From NCBI RefSeq assembly GCF_030013205.1, contig NZ_CP122648.1: a stretch of 64,000 bases of DNA; one strand, given 5' to 3'. Shown here one piece after another: positions 155 through 47,254 of the stretch; the first letter of the stretch is position 1; every line of letters starts with the position of its first letter. The translations under genes were made by a program, and so were the position numbers. The DNA is from Escherichia coli (GTDB lineage Bacteria > Pseudomonadota > Gammaproteobacteria > Enterobacterales > Enterobacteriaceae). The notes beneath the pieces were generated by a model. It did no database searches. It was not told where the DNA came from and saw nothing but the letters and a program-made list of their open reading frames with translations.

Positions 155-3100
155 CTAGCTCGCCTGGGAAGGCGCTTCGTCAGTTCCTGGAAGCGTTTCA
201 GGGAGTTGCGGCGCAAAGCCACGCAGGCCGACGACGTGTACGTGTTCGGTATTCTGGAAGACTTTACGCACCAGTTTATAGGTGGTGCCTTTCTCCGGGC
301 TGATATTTTCCGGCGCTGCGATGATGAGCTGCATTTGCAAACGCTCACACAATTCAAACAGCGTGGCGATAGAACGAGCATCCAGTCGCGCTGCTTCATC
401 GAGGAACAGCAGGCGGCAAGGAGAGATATCTTTACCGCGCAGGCGGCGAGATTCATCTTCCCAGCTTTGTACCACCATCACCAGAATCGACATACCGGTA
501 CCAATCGCCTCACCGGTCGACAATGCACCAGACTCTGCGCGCAACCAGCCATCGGAACCACGGTTAACCTCAACTTCCATTTCCAGATAGTTGCGGTAAT
601 CCAGCAGTTCTTCGCCAATGGTCTGCGGCGTGCGCTGCCCCATATCAATCTGCGGATTAAGACGCTGATACAATTTCGCCAGCGCTTCCGAGAAGGTCAG
701 ACGGTTGCTGTTAAACAGATCCTGATGCTGCTCGTGCTGTTCAGAGAGCACATCCAGCAGCATGGCGTGCGTTTCACGTACGTTCACGTTCAGACGTACG
801 CTGTTTACCTGACCGAACGATACGTTCTGCAAGCCCTGGTTGAGCATACGGATACGGTTTTGCTCGCGCTGAATGGTTTTGCGAATAATGTTCGCCACGC
901 TGCGGGAACTGATCGCCAGTTTCTGTTCGCGGGAGGTTAACTCTTCGGTCAGACGGCTAAGTTCGATCTCCATCTGTTCGATAGCTTCCACCGGATCATC
1001 GGTACGAATAATATCCTGACGAATACGTTCACGCAGATGCTGATAAACCGCCACGAAGAACTGAATTTTACGTTCCGGACGTTTTGGATCTTCCGACATG
1101 CGCAGCACATCGCGCAGATGTTCGTTATCTGCCACTGCCAGACGCAGCGCACCTAACGCCTTATCCGACATGGAACGCAAATCATCAGCGGAGAGATAAG
1201 CCAGCTCACGACGGTGTAAGCGGCGCTCAACGCCGTTATCTTTCACCATGCGCATGACTGCACACCAGCCCGCTTTCGCGGTCACTACCTGCTCGCGCAT
1301 CTCAAAGTAATCCCGCTCCAGCTTGCGCAGTTTGCGGGTCAGGTTGTCCATCTCTGCTTCGCAGAAGGTAAGCGCTTTTTCCAGTTGATTGCGGCGTGAA
1401 CGGTTATTGCTCAGTTGCGCGTGCAGCTCGTCACGGCGAATACGCGCCCGCTCTTCTGCCCCGCTATCAGCTCGCACGCCGATATCCTGCAATTCACGTT
1501 GCAGATCATTGAGTAGCTCTTTTTTGGTGTCGTAAGAACTTTTCAGCGAAGCCAGCACCTGGTTGTACTGACTCAACTGCGCTGCGTGTCCGCGCAACGC
1601 TTCACGCGCGCGGGTACGCTCCGCTTCCGCCTGTTCCAGACGTTCACGCAGTTTTTCGTTGAGATCGCTGTTACCGCTAAGCATTTCTGCCGAGTCAGAG
1701 TAGCTAAAGTGCGCACGACGCTGCACCACTTCCGTCAGGGCAAACGCCTGCTGACGGGCATCGCGCTGCATCTGCTGAGAGTACGCGTAATCTTCTTTTA
1801 ACTGTTCGAACTGTTCCGGGTCACTCTGCAATACCGAAACGATCGGTTCCAGTTTCGCCAGTTGATTACCGAACTGCTGAACAAAACGCGCGGCTTCCTG
1901 GGCTTCATCCAGACGTTCGCGGATTTCATCGACGCGATCTGCCAGGCTGTCATCAGCCAACAGGTTGAGACGCGGCAGAATGCGGTTCAGCGCCGTAACG
2001 CCCACTTTCGCCTGCTCAAATTGAATACGCTGCTGCTGGTTATCATTTTCATGATTACTCAGCGCCCGCTCCAGTTCGACGCGACGGCTGTTCAGTTGAC
2101 GGATTTCTGCTTCCGGGTTAGACTCAAACGCCACCGCCAGATGACTACCGATAAAGCGGCTGAACGCCTGATGCAGACGCTGGGTTTTCTGTACATCAAA
2201 GGAGAGCGTGGCGAAGCGTTCGGAAAGCACTTCACGCTCGACATGGAGGCTTTCAATACGGCTTTCACGCGCAGCACGACCAAACAGCGGCACTTCCGGG
2301 AAACGTGAATAACGCCACTGACGATCGGCGATTTTCACCACCACCGCTTTTTCCAGCTCATCAACGCTGAACACGCTGTCATCGAATGACTGCGGATCCC
2401 CTTCGATCAGATAGAGATCTTCCGGGCAATCGGTCAAGCCTTCCAGGTGTTCGGTTACCTGTGACAGATCTGGCACCACGATGGCGTGGCGTGACGGGCC
2501 ATACAGCGCCGAGAAGTACGGCGCATCTTCCAGGCTAACGTCGTCATAAATTTCTGACAGCAGCACGCCGCCAAAACGCTCCGCCAGCGCATTCAAACGC
2601 TGGTCTTCAGAACCACCTGGCTGGCTTAAACGTTCGATCTCTTCATCGACGGCGTTTTTGCGCGCGCCTACTTCATCGCGTTCAACAATCGCCTCGCGCT
2701 CACGCTCCAGCAACTGTTGCAGATATTCGGTGACGTCCTGGCTGGAGGAGAACTCTTCGCCGCACTGTTCGCTCAACTGGTTGAGACTGTTTTGCGCAGC
2801 CAGCCAAACCGGCGCACGCTGCATCAAACTCTGAATGCGAGACTGCAGCTGTTCCTGCTCCTGACGCAGTGCCATACGCTCTTCGCGGGCGTTAGACACG
2901 CTATCGGAAAGAGAGGCAATGCGCGCTTCCAGCTCCTGATGCAGAGCTTCCAGTTCATCAATATCAAAATTCTTGCCCTGACGTTTGCAGAAATCTGCCA
3001 GCAGGCGTTCGGCTTCTTGCTGCTCGCGCAGACGCTGTTCCAGTTCGCTTAAGCGCATCCGCAACGGTTGAACCTGCTCTGCCAGGTGACGCTGATCGAC

Positions 3101-4615
3101 CCCTTCGCGCAGCAGTTCGCGAGCGACATCCCACGCCTCGTTACGCGCCAGCGGGCCGTTGATTGCCACCACCAGCTGATAAGCCTGCTCAAACTGGCTG
3201 TGCGCGGTTTGCGCCATGCTCATTTTCTGCTCAAGAGAGAGCATTTTTTCAGTCGCTTCCAGCTCTTTCGCCTGGAAGGTTTCCAGCCATTCGGCGGCGC
3301 TGTCGGCGGTTAAGTCCGGCAGATGGCACAGTTCTTTGGCACGATTAAGCGCAGCAACCGCCTGGTTATACTGGATCGCGCGCGTTTGCTGGACGTCCAG
3401 CGCCTGCTGATAGTCAGCAAGCTGGCTTTTCAGCTCGTCCACTTCCAGTTCGGCAGCTTCCGCACGAGCCTCGTTCTCTTCCTGGCGTTCGATGGCTTCT
3501 GCCACCACTTCGTTTTGCTCTTCCAGACGGATCTGCAGCTCATCGAGATCCGCTTCGTAACGTTCGATCTTCTCCTGCTGACGCAGTGCGGTTTGCACCA
3601 GGTTCAGGTGATCGCTGGCCGCCTGATAATCTGCTTCCAGATCGCCTTCGGCACCGTTGTGCTCTGCCAGCTCACGCGCCATATCGACGTGTTTGTACTG
3701 CTCAGCCGCCAGTTGCTGACGCGAAGTGTGTAGCTCGCGACGAAATTCCAGGGCTTTGTCGAGATGGACACGGCGCTCGTTGGCGTGACGCATGTAGTCC
3801 GCCGCCACGTAGTTGGTGGCTTCGCTGATCAGATGCTTAAACAGGTCACGGTCCGACTGGGTGACACGAATCGCTTCCAGCGTCATGCGGTTTTCGCGCA
3901 GCGCCGCTTCCATGTCCTGGAACGCTTTCCGCACGCCGCTGTTTTCCGGCAACAGGTAGTCGCGCAGAGAGCGCGTAATGGCGCTGGAGATCCCGCCGTA
4001 CAGCGAAGCTTCGATCAGACGATAGAATTTGCTACGGTCAGACGCTGAGCGCAGACGACGCGCGATGATGCCCAGATCGAACATCAGCGAGTGGTAATCG
4101 GTAATGGAGTTGAACTGCTTAAACTGCACGCCTTCCATCGCCTCGAGCTTGTCTTTCAGCTCGTTCAGCGGCAGTACACGCGCCTGGCGTTCGTTGAGGG
4201 TTTCGGTCACCAGCTGCGTCGGCAGCACCGACATCGGCAGGCCCTGAATGGCAAACGGTTTGATATCGACTTTACGATCGCGTCCGGCAACCTGTTGCAA
4301 ACGCACACCGACCACCACACGCTGGTGGCGCGAGTTAATGGTGTCGAGCATCGAATAACAGACACCCGCTTTCAGCTTACCGTGCAGACCTTTATCGCGC
4401 GAACCGCTGGTGGCCCCGGCTTCCGTGGTGTTACGGAAATGCAGCAGGGTCAGGTCGGGGATCAGCGCCGTAACGAACGCCGCCATGGTGGTGGATTTAC
4501 CCGCCCCGTTACCGCCGGAGAGCGTCGTAACCAGCTCATCGAGGTCAAAAGTTCGGGCAAAAAAGCCGTTCCAGTTAATCAGCGTCAGTGAGCGAAATTT
4601 ACCGCGTTCAATCAT
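155..4615 (-). CDS. mukB: Chromosome partition protein MukB (SMC-like condensin ATPase), 1486 aa
   Basis: Full-length ORF; N-terminal Walker A (GGNGAGKST), long coiled coils, C-terminal DEAARLD motif; synteny with mukE/mukF. Confidence 0.97.
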
Positions 4616-39522: not shown

Positions 39523-40515
39523 CTAATCGATGGACAGTTTATGGACACTTTCAGCCAGCGGATTAAAGTTGATCGCGTCCTGTAAGAAGTCCGGCGAAAA
39601 ATGAGCGTACGTCATTGTTTGCTGAATCGTTGCGTGCCCCAGGATTCGTTGCAACGTAACAATATTTCCGCCATTCATCATAAAGTGTGTGGCAAATGTA
39701 TGACGCATGACATGCGTAGCCTGCCCCTTCGGCAAATCCGGTTTCACCTCCTGAAGAATCTCCCGGAACTTCAGATAATCAACCTGATACAATAACCCCG
39801 TTCGACGGGTTTTAATCAGAGGCACGACCGAATCCGCCACAGGAACCGAACGGGATTTTCCGTTTTTGGTGTTAAAGAACGTCACCCGGTTGCCAACGAT
39901 ATGCTCTCCACGTAGTTCCGATGCTTCACTCCATCGGGCACCAGTAGAAAGACACAGAATGGCAACACGACGCGCATCACCCTCCAGTCGCTCAAGAAGC
40001 CGTTCAATCTCATCATCAGAAAGAAAGGCCATCTCTGTGTTCTGAACTTTCAGTTTTCGTATACCGCGTACAGGGTTCGCGTTGTGAAAGACCTCAGCTT
40101 CAATCAGCACCGTGAACATGGTAGACAGTACGCATAAGTCACGATTAATACTGGACGGCATTAATCCGGCCTGTAATTTCTCTGACCGATATTCAAGCAT
40201 AAATTTTCGCGTCATCTGACTGGCGCGAGGATCTCCCATTTCACGAACAACCTTCCCTAGCCTAACCCTGTAGCTATCCCCGTAAGCCTGATTACGCCCA
40301 TCAAGCATCCACCACGCATCAAGCAGCTCTGATAATCGCCGCTGATCAGCTGGCTTAGCCTGCCATGGCTTGTCATGAAAGTTCTGTAACACATACTTCT
40401 CAAACTCCTGAGCCTTTGATTTCAGGGCAAAGATTTTTCGAATCCGCTTTCCTTCCGCCCCCTGCGGTCTGACATCGACCTGATAACGTCCGTCTTTGAG
40501 TTGCTTAATCGACAT
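39523..40515 (-). CDS. int: Phage integrase (tyrosine recombinase, P2 Int-like)
   Basis: N-terminus MSIKQLKDGRYQVDVRPQG resembles P2 Int; C-terminal catalytic region with HxxR...Y; adjacent to attL. Confidence 0.88.
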   Translation of the reverse strand: MSIKQLKDGRYQVDVRPQGAEGKRIRKIFALKSKAQEFEKYVLQNFHDKPWQAKPADQRRLSELLDAWWMLDGRNQAYGDSYRVRLGKVVREMGDPRASQMTRKFMLEYRSEKLQAGLMPSSINRDLCVLSTMFTVLIEAEVFHNANPVRGIRKLKVQNTEMAFLSDDEIERLLERLEGDARRVAILCLSTGARWSEASELRGEHIVGNRVTFFNTKNGKSRSVPVADSVVPLIKTRRTGLLYQVDYLKFREILQEVKPDLPKGQATHVMRHTFATHFMMNGGNIVTLQRILGHATIQQTMTYAHFSPDFLQDAINFNPLAESVHKLSID

Positions 40516-40584: not shown

Positions 40585-40926
40585 TCAGCCAACATTGCGG
40601 CCTGATCGGGGTGATTTTTGGGTAATACCGATTGAAACCTGATCGCCCTCCGACTGAATAGATCCATCAAGAGAGAGAGCCGGAGCAATCTGCCCGGCGA
40701 CAGGTAGCGTCTTATCTTTTATTAGCCACAGCATGTATTTTTCAAAGCGATCGACTTGCAGAACCGCCTCAACGATTTTTGCTCTAGCGTTCTTTTGCCC
40801 CGATTCGTAATTCCTTATGGTTGCCAAAGACAACCCAGTAATATCCGCAAACTGCTTTTGTGTTAACCCTTCCGCCTTACGTATCTGACGTAACTTTTTT
40901 GCATAGTCTATTGACAAGATAACCAT
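40585..40926 (-). CDS. Prophage repressor (P2 C-like, HTH)
   Basis: HTH LTQKQFADITGLSLATIRNYESG and C-terminal GQIAPAL motif resembling P2 C; start uncertain (ORF extends to 40980). Confidence 0.75.
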   Translation of the reverse strand: MVILSIDYAKKLRQIRKAEGLTQKQFADITGLSLATIRNYESGQKNARAKIVEAVLQVDRFEKYMLWLIKDKTLPVAGQIAPALSLDGSIQSEGDQVSIGITQKSPRSGRNVG

Positions 40927-41030: not shown

Positions 41031-41552
41031 ATGCGGGACTTCATTGCCGATAAAGAGTTATCTGACCACCAACCACTTCAGGAAAGTGACGCACTCAGCG
41101 GATCCATTGATGCCGCCAACGACGACGAACACGAAGAAAACAAGAAAAAGCGTTCCTACAAAAAAGGAGCGACTTTACGGCTGGATGGTCCGATCGCCGG
41201 GCTTTGCTCTCTGGAAAAAGGCGCGGCATATATTGGGCTAACAAAATCTGCACTGCGCGTAGCCATTCATCGCGGTCAAATGCCGGGACACAAGACGCGC
41301 ACAAACCCGGAAGATGAAAACTCAGACGGAGTATGGTGGTTTAACGCCAAAGAGTGGGACGCACTGGCTGACGAGCTACCGGAACTTGAGCCACCAGAAT
41401 GGCACAACTGGAAAAGTTACTGGACGTATGACCGCCAGAAAAGAAAGTTCTTTCCAGCTAATAAAGAAGACTGCCAGACCATTAACGGTAAGCGAGTTTA
41501 TACAGGCAGAAGCTCAAAACTGAACCAACTCAGAAACAACAGAGGCAACTAA
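41031..41552 (+). CDS. Early protein with excisionase/AlpA-like HTH (possible Cox analogue), 173 aa
   Basis: First gene of the rightward early operon with a good RBS; segment YIGLTKSALRVAIHRGQMPG resembles Xis/AlpA HTH. Confidence 0.5.
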   Translation: MRDFIADKELSDHQPLQESDALSGSIDAANDDEHEENKKKRSYKKGATLRLDGPIAGLCSLEKGAAYIGLTKSALRVAIHRGQMPGHKTRTNPEDENSDGVWWFNAKEWDALADELPELEPPEWHNWKSYWTYDRQKRKFFPANKEDCQTINGKRVYTGRSSKLNQLRNNRGN

Positions 41553-41556
41553 TCGT

Positions 41557-41979
41557 ATGAAAACAAACACGTCAGATTTCACAATAACTATTTCAAAAAA
41601 TGACCAAGCATTAATTGATAACCTGAAATACCTTGCGGAAAAACATAATAACGGACGAATTGCAATTAATTTACGACACATCACAGGAGTAACAATTGTA
41701 ACCAGTTACTGGCATCTATATCTAATCGCTAAATCAGTACTGGAAAACAAAGATTCTGTTGTCAATGGAAGAGATGTAGATACTCTTCCTGCACAAATCA
41801 AACCGATAGCCTATCAATTGCGTAATCGTTTTAAAAATGAAGGTGGGATTATATTTGACTTTCCCGCAGCTGTAGCCGTGAGCTTCTCTCGGGAGGATAT
41901 ACTTCACTCATTTCGTTTTGCTCTATCAGGTGACGAGACATTATGGCAGCTAGAAGATGCCGGGAGCAGCCCGGCATAA
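41557..41979 (+). CDS. Hypothetical protein, 140 aa, AT-rich cargo
   Basis: ORF starts 5 bp after the preceding gene; markedly AT-rich; no recognisable domain. Confidence 0.5.
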   Translation: MKTNTSDFTITISKNDQALIDNLKYLAEKHNNGRIAINLRHITGVTIVTSYWHLYLIAKSVLENKDSVVNGRDVDTLPAQIKPIAYQLRNRFKNEGGIIFDFPAAVAVSFSREDILHSFRFALSGDETLWQLEDAGSSPA

Positions 41980-41985
41980 ATCAAA

Positions 41986-42177
41986 TTAAAAATCAACCAG
42001 TTGTGTGACAGGTGGGTATTTACGCTGAATTTTGTCAGTTACTAACGCCAGTAATATATGAATCTCTGCGTTTAATGCGTCTTTATCACCCGTCGTTTTT
42101 ACCCTAGGAGGGTTAATGTTATCCAGAGCAGCACTAAGGTCACTCAACAAATTAACAACTTTTTTATCTTCTGACAT
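41986..42177 (-). CDS. Hypothetical small protein, 63 aa, convergent to the 140-aa ORF
   Basis: AT-rich ORF on the opposite strand inside the early region. Confidence 0.35.
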   Translation of the reverse strand: MSEDKKVVNLLSDLSAALDNINPPRVKTTGDKDALNAEIHILLALVTDKIQRKYPPVTQLVDF

Positions 42178-42312
42178 GAAAACCTCTAAACAATTTAATT
42201 AAACATAAGCCAGGACCTGAACCGGCCAGTCCAAGTCCTAGACACACAAAAAATACCACAAATCAATACAAGGTGACACGAGTACACCTTACCGAAGGTA
42301 CAGAGTTTTAAT

Positions 42313-42663
42313 ATGAAACTACAGCGCAATTCTTCACAGCCGCGCTTCCGCAACGGTGCGGAACGCCACGCTAACCGTTTCGCTACCAGTGCATCACGTA
42401 GCAACTCTCGCTACAGCCTGAGCGAAACACACGCAACGCCGGATGGCTACCCAGTAAAACAAATCGGCGAGCATACCTGGCTGATTGAGAAAGCTGGAAT
42501 TGTGGTCCACAAATGCCCACGCAATCCGTTTACCGGAAACCGCATTTTTGCATTGAGCTGCGGCGACAATCAGTTCGGGCAGGATTTCACATTATACGAA
42601 GCACTTCGCACGGTTGATCGTCTGCTTCGCGGGCAAAGTTTTATTAAACAGGCTGATTTATAA
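42313..42663 (+). CDS. Hypothetical phage early protein, 116 aa
   Basis: ORF in the early operon; start uncertain. Confidence 0.4.
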   Translation: MKLQRNSSQPRFRNGAERHANRFATSASRSNSRYSLSETHATPDGYPVKQIGEHTWLIEKAGIVVHKCPRNPFTGNRIFALSCGDNQFGQDFTLYEALRTVDRLLRGQSFIKQADL

Positions 42664-42972: not shown

Positions 42973-43215
42973 ATGGGCAAAGAATATAAAACTCTCATTA
43001 ACAAAGCACTTGAGCGTTTTTATTTTCGCTTAAGTGCATCAGGCGCTCATGCTGAACGTGCAGCCCGTGACTCATTGACCAGGGCAATCCGGAGTCTGTA
43101 TGACGTGGCTTTTTACGCTGATGATCTGGATGCACTTAACGAACTTTCCGAGCTGATCTGTGCCGCAGAATGCGGGGAACATATTGAACCGTATAAGCTG
43201 GGGAATATCGCATGA
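42973..43215 (+). CDS. Hypothetical phage early protein, 80 aa
   Basis: ORF ending in an ATGA overlap with the following small ORF. Confidence 0.45.
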   Translation: MGKEYKTLINKALERFYFRLSASGAHAERAARDSLTRAIRSLYDVAFYADDLDALNELSELICAAECGEHIEPYKLGNIA

Positions 43216-43325
43216 GTATATTTATCTCGTGGCTTGTTCTGATTATTTCGGTGATCTGCGCTATTGGCATTATGCGAATTATTCATTCAGTGAAAAAGAT
43301 TGAGCGTTTTTTCTCTGACGAATAA
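43212..43325 (+). CDS. Small hydrophobic peptide, 37 aa (MSIFISWLVLIISVICAIGIMRIIHSVKKIERFFSDE)
   Basis: ATG overlaps the upstream stop (ATGA); single TM helix; below the ORF-track length cutoff. Confidence 0.35.
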   Translation: MSIFISWLVLIISVICAIGIMRIIHSVKKIERFFSDE

Positions 43326-43418
43326 CAGCACAAATAAAACACCAGATTAAATAAGAAAACGTGAAAACCATCCGAATTAACGGAGGCATTCACACACGTA
43401 AATAATGGAGATACAAAA

Positions 43419-44606: not shown

Positions 44607-44810
44607 ATGAACAAAAAGACCTGGTTTCGCGCATACATGTGGGCGCTGGTATGCGTCCTCGTTTCTCTCATTCTGTATGCAGGACTCCTCCCCCGAATGA
44701 TTTCATCAGACAGCTCCTTCCTGGTATTGCTGGGCATTTTCATTGCCATGCTGTACCCGGCAGGCGTTGTTCGCCTTTTCAGTAAGTACATCAAGGAAAT
44801 CAAACAATGA
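44607..44810 (+). CDS. Small two-helix membrane protein, 67 aa (possible NfeD-like partner)
   Basis: Two hydrophobic helices; stop overlaps the start of the SPFH gene (ATGA). Confidence 0.5.
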   Translation: MNKKTWFRAYMWALVCVLVSLILYAGLLPRMISSDSSFLVLLGIFIAMLYPAGVVRLFSKYIKEIKQ

Positions 44811-45637
44811 AGAAATTCAAACTCTTTCAGATTATCCCTCTTTTTGCCGCCATCCTGCTGGTTGGTTGCGATCGTGTTGAGCCAGGTAATGTGGGCATCA
44901 AAGTCAACAAACTGGGCGACGACAAAGGCGTCGGTGAAGTGGTTGGTGTTGGCCGCTACTGGACTGGCTGGAATACCGAGGTTTACATCTTCCCGACCTT
45001 CAAACAAATGAAGACCTACGATGAGCCGTTCAGCTTCCAGATGAGTGACGGCACAACCATCGGCTATCACATCGGTGTGGCCTACAAGGTTGATCCATCC
45101 AAAGTTACTACAGTGTTTCAGACCTACCGCAAAGGCGTGGATGACATTACCGACACTGACCTGCGCCAGAAGATCGCCGATGCACTCAACCGACTGGCCA
45201 GCAAAATGACCACCGACAAATTTATCGACGGCGGGAAATCTGAACTACTGGATGCAGCTCTTAAAGACATTCAGGAGGAAATGACACCCATCGGTATTCA
45301 GGTAATGAGCCTCTCATATGTGGGTAAGCCGGAGTACCCGTCAACCGTTATCGACAGCATTAATGCCAAAGTCACGGCAAACCAGAAAACCCTGCAACGC
45401 GAACAGGAAGTCAAGCAACGTGAAGCAGAAGCCAACATGTTGCGCGCAGAAGCTGCCGGACAGGCTGATGCCATTCGCACAAAAGCCCAGGCTGAAGCCG
45501 ACGCCATTCGTTTACGCGGTGAAGCTCTGCGCCAGAATCCCGGCGTTATGGAGCTGGAAGCAATCAACAAATGGAACGGCACGCTGCCGCAATACATGAC
45601 CAGCAATACCGCTGTTCCGTTTGTTCCGGTGAAGTAA
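44807..45637 (+). CDS. SPFH/band-7 (stomatin/prohibitin-like) lipoprotein, 276 aa
   Basis: Lipobox LLVGC; SPFH-like core followed by an Ala/Glu-rich coiled coil (REAEANMLRAEAAGQADAIRTKAQAEADAIRLRGEA). Confidence 0.65.
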   Translation: MKKFKLFQIIPLFAAILLVGCDRVEPGNVGIKVNKLGDDKGVGEVVGVGRYWTGWNTEVYIFPTFKQMKTYDEPFSFQMSDGTTIGYHIGVAYKVDPSKVTTVFQTYRKGVDDITDTDLRQKIADALNRLASKMTTDKFIDGGKSELLDAALKDIQEEMTPIGIQVMSLSYVGKPEYPSTVIDSINAKVTANQKTLQREQEVKQREAEANMLRAEAAGQADAIRTKAQAEADAIRLRGEALRQNPGVMELEAINKWNGTLPQYMTSNTAVPFVPVK

Positions 45638-46004
45638 TTAAACCCGGCCAGTGAAAATCACTGGCCGGAGCAGTATCAGGATTTTTTAGTATGCCGTTCT
45701 CACAAAAAAACCGCTTGCCATGCCGCAATCAGTCAGGTTACATTTCCGCTGCACCTCATAAAACGGGTGCCGGGATTTCCACCCCGCTGACAACCAAAGC
45801 GCACAACCGCGCCAGCGGTTTTTTTGTGCGTACCGTATCGCCACGTCTTTTTCGCACACGAATTATGGTGGGGCGTATGGGGCCGACTTCGGTCGGGCCG
45901 GGTTCTTTGGTTGCCGGTTGTGGAAACCCTGTACGTCTCACCACCCCGAGTTTTCCACCTCTGGATGGTGAGTTTTCAAAACTTACAACCAAAGAGGCCA
46001 CACC

Positions 46005-46679: not shown

Positions 46680-46967
46680 ATGACAGCAGAGTACATCAGG
46701 GACTGGCAACAACCGCGCCACGCAGTGGGGCGTGAAGGAACGGGGATCCCTGCTCCTGAAGCGGTGGAAGGTGTCGCAACGTCACAGGCCGACATTATCG
46801 ACCGTTTTAATGCGCTGGAAACCCGCCATCAGCAGGACAGCCAGAAAATCACTTTACTGACCACAGAGCTGACAGCACTGAAGGAAAAACTGCGCACGCA
46901 GGACGGCGATCCGCAGAACCGGTTCACCGCAACGGGCGCAGCCTCCGATCAACTGGCTGACTTCTGA
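46680..46967 (+). CDS. Hypothetical phage protein, 95 aa
   Basis: Tightly packed ORF. Confidence 0.45.
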   Translation: MTAEYIRDWQQPRHAVGREGTGIPAPEAVEGVATSQADIIDRFNALETRHQQDSQKITLLTTELTALKEKLRTQDGDPQNRFTATGAASDQLADF

Positions 46968-46990
46968 TAAGACAAAGGAGCAAATTTTTT

Positions 46991-47254
46991 ATGAATCTGG
47001 TGATGTCAGATATTACCCGCAACAAGCTGGGTTGCTATATGGCGCAGCAGGCGTCGCTTAACAACATCCCGGTATCTGCACTGGTATCGCGATTTACCGT
47101 GGAACCCTCGGTGTCCGCCATTGCTGCCGCACTGCATGTGCACGGTGTGCAACGCGTGGAAATAATCGAACCCACACAGAATATGGCCATCAGCGACATA
47201 CAGGCGGCGCGCTGTGAGTCATTCACCATCAGCGAAGGTGGACGCAATGAGTAA
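46991..47254 (+). CDS. Short ORF (87 aa) overlapping the gpI start; possibly a 3' remnant of baseplate gene J
   Basis: 8-bp overlap with gpI as expected for a J/I junction; far shorter than P2 J (~300 aa). Confidence 0.35.
   Translation: MNLVMSDITRNKLGCYMAQQASLNNIPVSALVSRFTVEPSVSAIAAALHVHGVQRVEIIEPTQNMAISDIQAARCESFTISEGGRNE

Follow-up and report, generated by a model that had tools for sequence, protein, structure and literature searches.

The closest described relatives of the gene considered here belong to P88-like Peduoviridae of the genus Xuanwuvirus (P88, phiSM, P884B11, 520873 and others), in which P88 gp07 (YP_009113050.1) is annotated as a 'membrane protein' and its counterpart in vB_EcoM-569R5 as a 'putative membrane protein'. 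The present analysis concerns a 37-codon open reading frame (ORF) at 43212-43325 on the + strand of a 64,000-nucleotide (nt) stretch of Escherichia coli DNA from NZ_CP122648.1 (the window), which lies in a P2-family prophage. P88 gp07 is the same gene: the two products are 92% identical over 37/37 amino acids (aa), and both genes occupy the same position 3' of a DUF4754 gene with the same 4-nt overlap. P88 differs from the window allele at I15 and at the C-terminal SDE; A15 and TGE are found in the commonest of the related alleles, and identity to the other 8 phages is 84-97%. On the evidence of sequence comparison we conclude that this ORF is a real protein-coding gene under purifying selection. 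We further consider, with a probability of roughly 0.7, that it is the orthologue of P88 gp07 and encodes a 37-aa single-pass inner-membrane peptide with a likely accessory early-lytic role on a conserved host membrane target. The features on which the argument turns are these.

43212-43325, + strand: the peptide gene, 37 codons plus TAA, product MSIFISWLVLIISVICAIGIMRIIHSVKKIERFFSDE, orthologue of P88 gp07 and equal to WP_001519659.1.
42973-43215, + strand: the DUF4754 gene, 80 aa, directly 5' of the peptide gene (full-length Pfam match, E = 2.8e-54).
43212-43215, + strand: ATGA shared by the peptide start and the DUF4754 stop, where coupling by termination-reinitiation may occur.
43200-43205, + strand: Shine-Dalgarno (SD)-like GGGGAA, 7 nt 5' of the peptide ATG, within the Leu-Gly-Asn codons of DUF4754.
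43218-43274, + strand: predicted transmembrane (TM) core IFISWLVLIISVICAIGIM, codons 3-21, with W7 and G19 invariant.
43275-43322, + strand: basic amphipathic tail RIIHSVKKIERFFSDE, codons 22-37, predicted to be cytoplasmic, with K28 invariant.
43307-43312, + strand: T6 run in codons 32-34, where loss of 1 nt gives 45-aa tail variants (…RFSLxNNxxNKTxx).

The first-pass annotation of the window, made from the letters alone, had picked out a 37-codon ORF with one TM helix and an ATG within the stop codon of the 80-aa ORF, had placed it in a prophage early operon, and had made its standing depend on conservation of the reading frame in related prophages. All of this is borne out: the predicted TM segment has a 19-residue Kyte-Doolittle mean (KD19) of 2.82 and is modelled as a helix by AlphaFold2, the ATGA overlap is present at 43212-43215, the operon is the cox-side operon of a P2-family prophage, and the peptide frame is intact in 86/87 related loci and under purifying selection. 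The ORF is not remarkable in itself. At least 37 codons are opened by 42% of the ATG triplets in the window, so that its length does not exceed what chance would give; the DNA here is rich in AT (35% GC), and ATGA overlaps are common within the operon (4/11 junctions). With ORF length and overlap both ordinary here, the case for a gene must rest on comparison with relatives.

This comparison favours a gene. The ATGA is invariant across the related loci, including clades with differing flanks, and the ratio of the proportions of nonsynonymous and synonymous differences (pN/pS; Nei-Gojobori, unique sequences) is 0.39 in the peptide frame, which is comparable to that of the DUF4754 gene (0.36). 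Of the remaining frames, four give 0.99-1.20; the last, on the antisense strand, matches the peptide frame at 0.39 but contains no conserved ORF, and its value can be ascribed to shared third codon positions. Its ORF, at 43136-43270, was rejected as a candidate, its start being absent in 28/39 unique sequences and its frame interrupted by stops in 2/3 diverged clade representatives, and likewise an alternative ORF on the + strand (43160-43303) is broken in relatives and not conserved.

Constraint is also seen at greater distance. When four clades were compared, the ratio of nonsynonymous to synonymous rates (dN/dS) for the peptide was about 0.1-0.4, with one pair at 0.8, and synonymous sites in the peptide ORF were near saturation (pS 0.47-0.76; pN 0.2-0.33). 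Between clades the peptide is 50-62% identical and DUF4754 26-40%, and nucleotide identity is highest, at 0.73-0.80, at the 5' end of the peptide ORF. At E <= 0.01, 68 protein clusters match the peptide and, when 1.84 billion representative proteins were searched exhaustively with phmmer, just 7 matches came back, all from the same peptide family. Its remotest members, P0069, P0070 and P0071 (62%, 57% and 50% identity, respectively), are each encoded directly 3' of a DUF4754 gene with a 4-nt overlap, and the long tail of P0071 is the result of one 1-nt deletion.

At the junction itself, gcATGAgt, the peptide ATG (43212-43214) shares its TG with the TGA (43213-43215) that closes the 80-aa ORF at 42973-43215. 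An SD-like purine tract is found 6-10 nt 5' of this ATG in all clades, although its bases vary (GGGGA/GAGGTGG/GAGGAG/AGGAGG/GGGAA). From the overlap and the conserved SD tract we infer that translation of the peptide gene may be coupled to that of DUF4754.

The product has the properties of a small membrane protein. The KD19 value of residues 3-21 is the highest among the 216 ATG-initiated ORFs of 30-60 aa in the six frames of the window, the position-independent Hessa sum of the TM segment is -3.6 kcal/mol, and AlphaFold2, supplied with an alignment of 19 sequences, predicts a single continuous helix over residues 2-35 (predicted local distance difference test, pLDDT, 88). Residues W7, L10, I11, G19, M21, I24, K28, I30 and F34 are invariant in the peptide family, and the conserved small residues S2/S6/S13/A17 fall on one helical face (100-160 degrees on a helical wheel), a pattern of the kind expected of a helix-packing face. 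Only Met-Ser lies N-terminal to the hydrophobic segment and all of the K/R residues are C-terminal to it, which by the positive-inside rule points to an N-out/C-in topology.

The gene is already in public databases, as an uncharacterised phage small membrane protein. The Prokaryotic Genome Annotation Pipeline (PGAP) annotates it across RefSeq E. coli, as the identical 'hypothetical protein' WP_001519659.1 and, in O157, as WP_000021655.1; in UniRef it goes by the name 'Prophage membrane protein', and a feature for it is present in 10/11 of the annotated phage records containing the peptide, the feature being absent only in NC_049344. The statement in the first-pass annotation that such peptides are routinely missed therefore does not hold for this ORF, which is called by PGAP, as P88 gp07, by UniRef and in those phage records. 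The accompanying suggestion that they are often host-killing or exclusion factors was a generality, and the peptide gave no match to defence or toxin families in Pfam or PADLOC. In the published literature searched, neither DUF4754 nor the peptide sequence nor the peptide accessions are the subject of any paper, and the peptide gene is not taken up in those on P88 and phiSM. The main outcome is thus that annotation pipelines correctly call a real, uncharacterised small gene, and no new category is needed.

The operon in which the gene lies runs, after an integrase and a helix-turn-helix (HTH) repressor on the - strand, through cox, a hypothetical gene, DUF4761, a second hypothetical gene (phrog_3800), DUF4754, the peptide gene and more early genes, all on the + strand. 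Its other landmarks are as follows.

39523-40515, - strand: integrase (annotation).
40585-40926, - strand: divergent repressor (annotation).
41031-41552, + strand: cox-family gene, first of the early operon (annotation).
42313-42663, + strand: DUF4761 gene, conserved, 5' in all contexts examined and part of the same early segment.

This layout of the immunity region and early operon is the same as that of P2 (Pe-cox) and of 186 (pR-apl). Taking position in the cox-side operon, physico-chemistry and conservation together, we judge an accessory early-lytic inner-membrane peptide to be the most likely product. The peptide gene would be transcribed as part of a polycistronic early operon starting at cox, which by analogy with P2 is presumably switched off in the lysogen by the divergent repressor. 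Translation would start at the ATG on the DUF4754 stop codon, aided by the conserved SD-like tract, and the peptide would be made together with DUF4754. It would most likely insert N-out/C-in, pack helix to helix inside the membrane through its Ser/Ala/Gly face and the invariant Trp7, and display its short basic amphipathic tail at the cytoplasmic face. The process most likely to be targeted would be host takeover, perturbation of the envelope or of cell division, or membrane energetics. A membrane-active peptide would represent an early function specific to P88-like (Xuanwuvirus) phages and might offer a compact tool or lead with which to perturb a host membrane process; genomes with the locus include those of O157:H7, enterotoxigenic E. 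coli (ETEC) and sequence type 131 (ST131) lineages.

The slot which the gene occupies recalls that of fil and dhr in phage 186, host-takeover genes which lie between the cox/apl regulator and the first intergenic hairpin/terminator (tR1). Fil, a cell-division inhibitor, and Dhr, an inhibitor of host replication, are the products of short, overlapping, non-essential early genes in this same position of the operon; however, they are not membrane peptides (KD19 1.26 and 0.49, respectively) and bear no sequence relation to the peptide. The likeness is positional only.

Several observations weigh against an early-lytic membrane role. No TM ORF was found in the early operons of P2 and 186, which weakens the positional analogy to fil/dhr. 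The peptide matched no family in Pfam, PHROGs, PADLOC or NCBIfam and, with no functional homologue in any of these libraries, its role is argued from position and physico-chemistry only. The 45-aa tail variants, in which one T has been lost from the T5/T6 run, arise on several sequence backgrounds; the last 4 residues of the peptide thus tolerate frameshifts and are dispensable. In E. coli O111:H- 11128 (NC_013364; L093), IS1203 splits the peptide gene about nine codons in (2744-4021 of that locus). Together the disruption and the tolerated tail frameshifts imply that the peptide gene is dispensable for the lysogen. The peptide is not listed in the ribosome profiling (Ribo-seq) supplements for O157 Sakai. 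Finally, repression of the operon in lysogens, as supposed above, is an extrapolation from P2.

The first alternative to be weighed is that the peptide is the membrane anchor or obligate partner of DUF4754, forming with it a complex of fixed ratio and either tethering it to the inner membrane or being itself toxic and neutralised by DUF4754. It can be seen that the two genes are adjacent, with the 4-nt overlap, in every context observed, whereas the genes flanking the pair vary. The two families occur only in the same Escherichia P88-like phages; their hosts are of the Escherichia type, with some spread to Shigella, Salmonella, E. albertii and Citrobacter. The AlphaFold2 model of DUF4754 (pLDDT 90) is a helical hairpin with a disordered C-terminus, an arrangement that may suggest oligomerisation or partner binding; the model had no match in the Protein Data Bank (PDB) at E < 1 by Foldseek, and the sequence matched only designed helical repeats there. 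There is also a precedent in RonA, a TM effector whose lethality is suppressed by the co-expressed cytosolic partners HsdMS (bioRxiv 10.1101/2023.04.06.535777).

The distribution of alleles speaks against this proposal. DUF4754 is hypervariable, with at least six types of 26-45% identity within E. coli phages (L084, L088, L092, L098 and L099 compared), although one type is 100% identical throughout its 80 IMG/VR loci. One and the same peptide, P0069, is found behind a DUF4754 protein that is 40% (L084) or 83% (L085) identical to that of the window, these two being about 40% identical to each other, and the chimeric peptides P0041 and P0046 follow further DUF4754 types. The occurrence of the same peptide allele behind different DUF4754 types indicates recombination at the junction. 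Peptide and DUF4754 types do not covary, which tells against an interface in tight co-evolution, and the persistence of the same peptide behind divergent DUF4754 proteins implies that it is conserved independently of its hypervariable neighbour. This pattern suggests that the peptide may be conserved for a target of its own that is itself conserved. Proteins of 103-128 aa that appear to fuse DUF4754 to the peptide were examined as possible Rosetta-stone evidence and dismissed, being singleton frameshift or assembly artefacts, mostly in the wrong frame. We conclude that DUF4754 is a possible, not co-evolving, partner, and regard the obligate relationship as a tentative proposal that is probably not correct.

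A related and somewhat more doubtful idea is that DUF4754 and the peptide make up a two-gene module for host takeover or counter-defence, in which a fast-evolving cytosolic hairpin is produced in fixed ratio with a conserved membrane effector. The target of such an effector would be a conserved inner-membrane component of E. coli, for example of the divisome, of transport or of energy coupling. Were the module to exist, a latent effector active at the membrane would be present in about a quarter of E. coli genomes. That the peptide is conserved and its translationally linked neighbour hypervariable suggests, in any case, a division of labour.

One observation on the range of DUF4754 should be recorded here. 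A contig search with the DUF4754 profile, which used one restrictive pattern and gave a single match, is uninformative on taxonomic range. The match (L095; JAIJJM010000267.1) is a 4-kb contig from a metagenome-assembled genome (MAG) labelled 'Collinsella sp.', with a DUF4754 gene 99% identical, and is almost certainly a mis-binned E. coli prophage fragment.

We consider it improbable that the peptide is a lysogenic-conversion factor, made in lysogens and blocking superinfecting phages at the membrane by exclusion or defence. Prophage-encoded small membrane proteins are capable of exclusion, as is P22 SieA (PMC10883804); the gene is kept intact in many prophages, including the present deleted one, and the DUF4754-peptide region is present in 1390/5426 complete E. 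coli genomes (~25%). However, the gene lies inside the cox-side early operon, unlike the separately transcribed conversion loci of P2 (old/tin), and promoter-like sites upstream of it number 5, as against 6.4 expected by shuffling. The peptide had no match in PADLOC, and comparison with exclusion and conversion proteins of the SieA, Imm and HK97 gp15 type likewise gave none in PADLOC, PHROGs, NCBIfam or Pfam.

Much less credible is a killer of the type I toxin kind (Hok/TisB-like), stabilising the prophage or killing the host under the control of an antisense RNA. Type I toxins (Hok/Gef, TisB, Ldr, Ibs, ShoB and DinQ) are, like the peptide, no longer than ~50 aa and share with it a single hydrophobic helix and a charged end, which in the peptide is the C-terminus. 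Translation of hok depends on coupling to an overlapping frame, mok, and the predicted coupling of the peptide gene to its upstream frame resembles this arrangement. Prophage-borne type I toxin-antitoxin systems also exist (PMC12648545). Nevertheless, the upstream frame at the present locus encodes a bona fide 80-aa protein family and not a leader, and the peptide gene differs from those of type I toxins in being embedded in a long polycistronic phage operon. Membership of the group was rejected, since no Pfam toxin family was matched at E <= 1 beyond noise, and pairwise scores against TisB, Hok, Ldr, Ibs, ShoB and DinQ were within the range of shuffled sequences; other small peptides compared gave no similarity beyond TM composition. 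No Rfam RNA family overlaps the peptide ORF, and antisense promoter- and terminator-like sites were not above shuffle expectation, although such consensus scans are weak tests.

A similarly slender chance attaches to the idea that the ORF is a regulatory leader or spacer of which only the act of translation matters, for example by modulating a downstream hairpin or downstream genes. The hairpin concerned is the following.

43361-43393, + strand: conserved hairpin with the core ATCCG-loop-CGGAGG, free energy (dG) -12.6, in the 93-nt gap at 43326-43418.

It begins 36 nt 3' of the peptide stop and is found in all diverged clades, with its 5 core pairs nearly invariant and one compensatory change from C-G to U-A. 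No start codon lies at SD distance from its GGAGG. It sits where 186 has tR1 and P2 a putative terminator, but it has no U-tract. It marks the end of this operon segment. A leader would be consistent with the conservation of this hairpin past the stop, with the position of the ORF at the close of a segment where 186 and P2 have terminators, and with the C-terminal frameshift variants, which bring the stop to ~12 nt from the hairpin. In the common form, however, the hairpin is too distant from the stop for a terminating ribosome to reach, and the strong amino-acid constraint across the TM segment (pN/pS 0.39, invariant residues) is unexpected for a spacer. The weakest explanation, that of a chance ORF without a product in DNA conserved for other reasons, can appeal to the frequency of ORFs of this length and to the AT-richness of the region, but it is largely refuted by the frame-specific purifying selection with decay of the alternative frames, by the conservation of start, SD and stop region over clades with near-saturated synonymous sites, and by the extreme hydrophobic periodicity.

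The prophage that carries the gene adjoins dmsA, and the region is 100% identical to that of E. coli ETEC4079 (NZ_CP122643). It is internally deleted at ~46680-47115 (8081-8514 of L001), where a fragment of a replication gene is joined to fragments of the capsid-scaffold (GPO) and major-capsid genes; the element is defective, with its early region intact. The interval between cox and DUF4761 (41557-42312) holds a variable insert made up of a 140-aa ORF (+), a 63-aa ORF on the opposite strand (41986-42177) and a hairpin with a 14-bp stem (42210-42241). Wholly different genes occupy this interval in L084, L086 and L087, which suggests that it is a hotspot for accessory genes. In L085 (GCA_900536625.1, 1-1795) a Mu-type transposase gene precedes DUF4761-DUF4754-peptide, replacing the integrase/repressor/cox module, an arrangement that reflects either a hybrid element or adjacent insertions.

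Further along the early operon, a 67-aa protein with two TM segments (44607-44810, +) is ATGA-coupled to a 276-aa SPFH/Band-7 lipoprotein with weak similarity to HflK/HflC (44807-45637, +). These genes correspond to P88 gp11 and gp12, and this second membrane gene pair of the operon resembles an NfeD/SPFH-type pair. Two RNAs scored above the Rfam gathering score, the Hfq-binding RNA isrK at 45751-45825 (+, 64 bits) and the C4 antisense RNA at 45861-45948 (+, 80 bits). They lie in tandem within the region of an 'ash family protein' pseudogene, 5' of a 'derepression protein' gene, and look like a P4/P1-like RNA immunity or antirepressor control module in a P2-family prophage.

It remains to set the peptide beside small membrane proteins of known function. 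A holin or pinholin was rejected, as the place of the gene is between cox and the replication gene, in the early operon, and not in a late lysis cassette beside an endolysin. RonA, the 61-aa TM effector of Ronin, is likewise a small single-TM protein encoded next to its partner genes, but it is part of a host defence island, its action as a cell-death effector has been demonstrated, and it has no sequence relation to the peptide (bioRxiv 10.1101/2023.04.06.535777). A resemblance to Blr, a protein of the division septum, over 9 residues of the TM segment (W[LI]VL[IV][IV]SVI) was also followed up; kinship was rejected, because hhalign gave a probability of 28% over 12 columns, PF24673 was not matched, and the motif SHIDNYQPPE, invariant in the Blr alignment, is absent from the peptide.

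In topology the closest parallel is with the Pf3 coat protein, which is a model for N-out/C-in single-span insertion through YidC. Both have a short uncharged N-terminus that would lie outside and a basic, aromatic C-terminal tail that would lie inside, as predicted from the positive-inside rule; the two are not homologous, and the peptide does not belong to the virion. Insertion by way of SecYEG or YidC is a requirement for most small membrane proteins (PMC12648545). With at most 50 aa and one predicted TM helix, the peptide fits this class of proteins, and AcrZ, MgrB, MgtS, CydX and Blr of E. coli are of the same size class with a single TM helix, although they are not homologous to the peptide, which is phage-encoded. 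Small single-pass regulators of this kind are likely to act by helix-helix binding to a larger membrane protein (PMC12648545).

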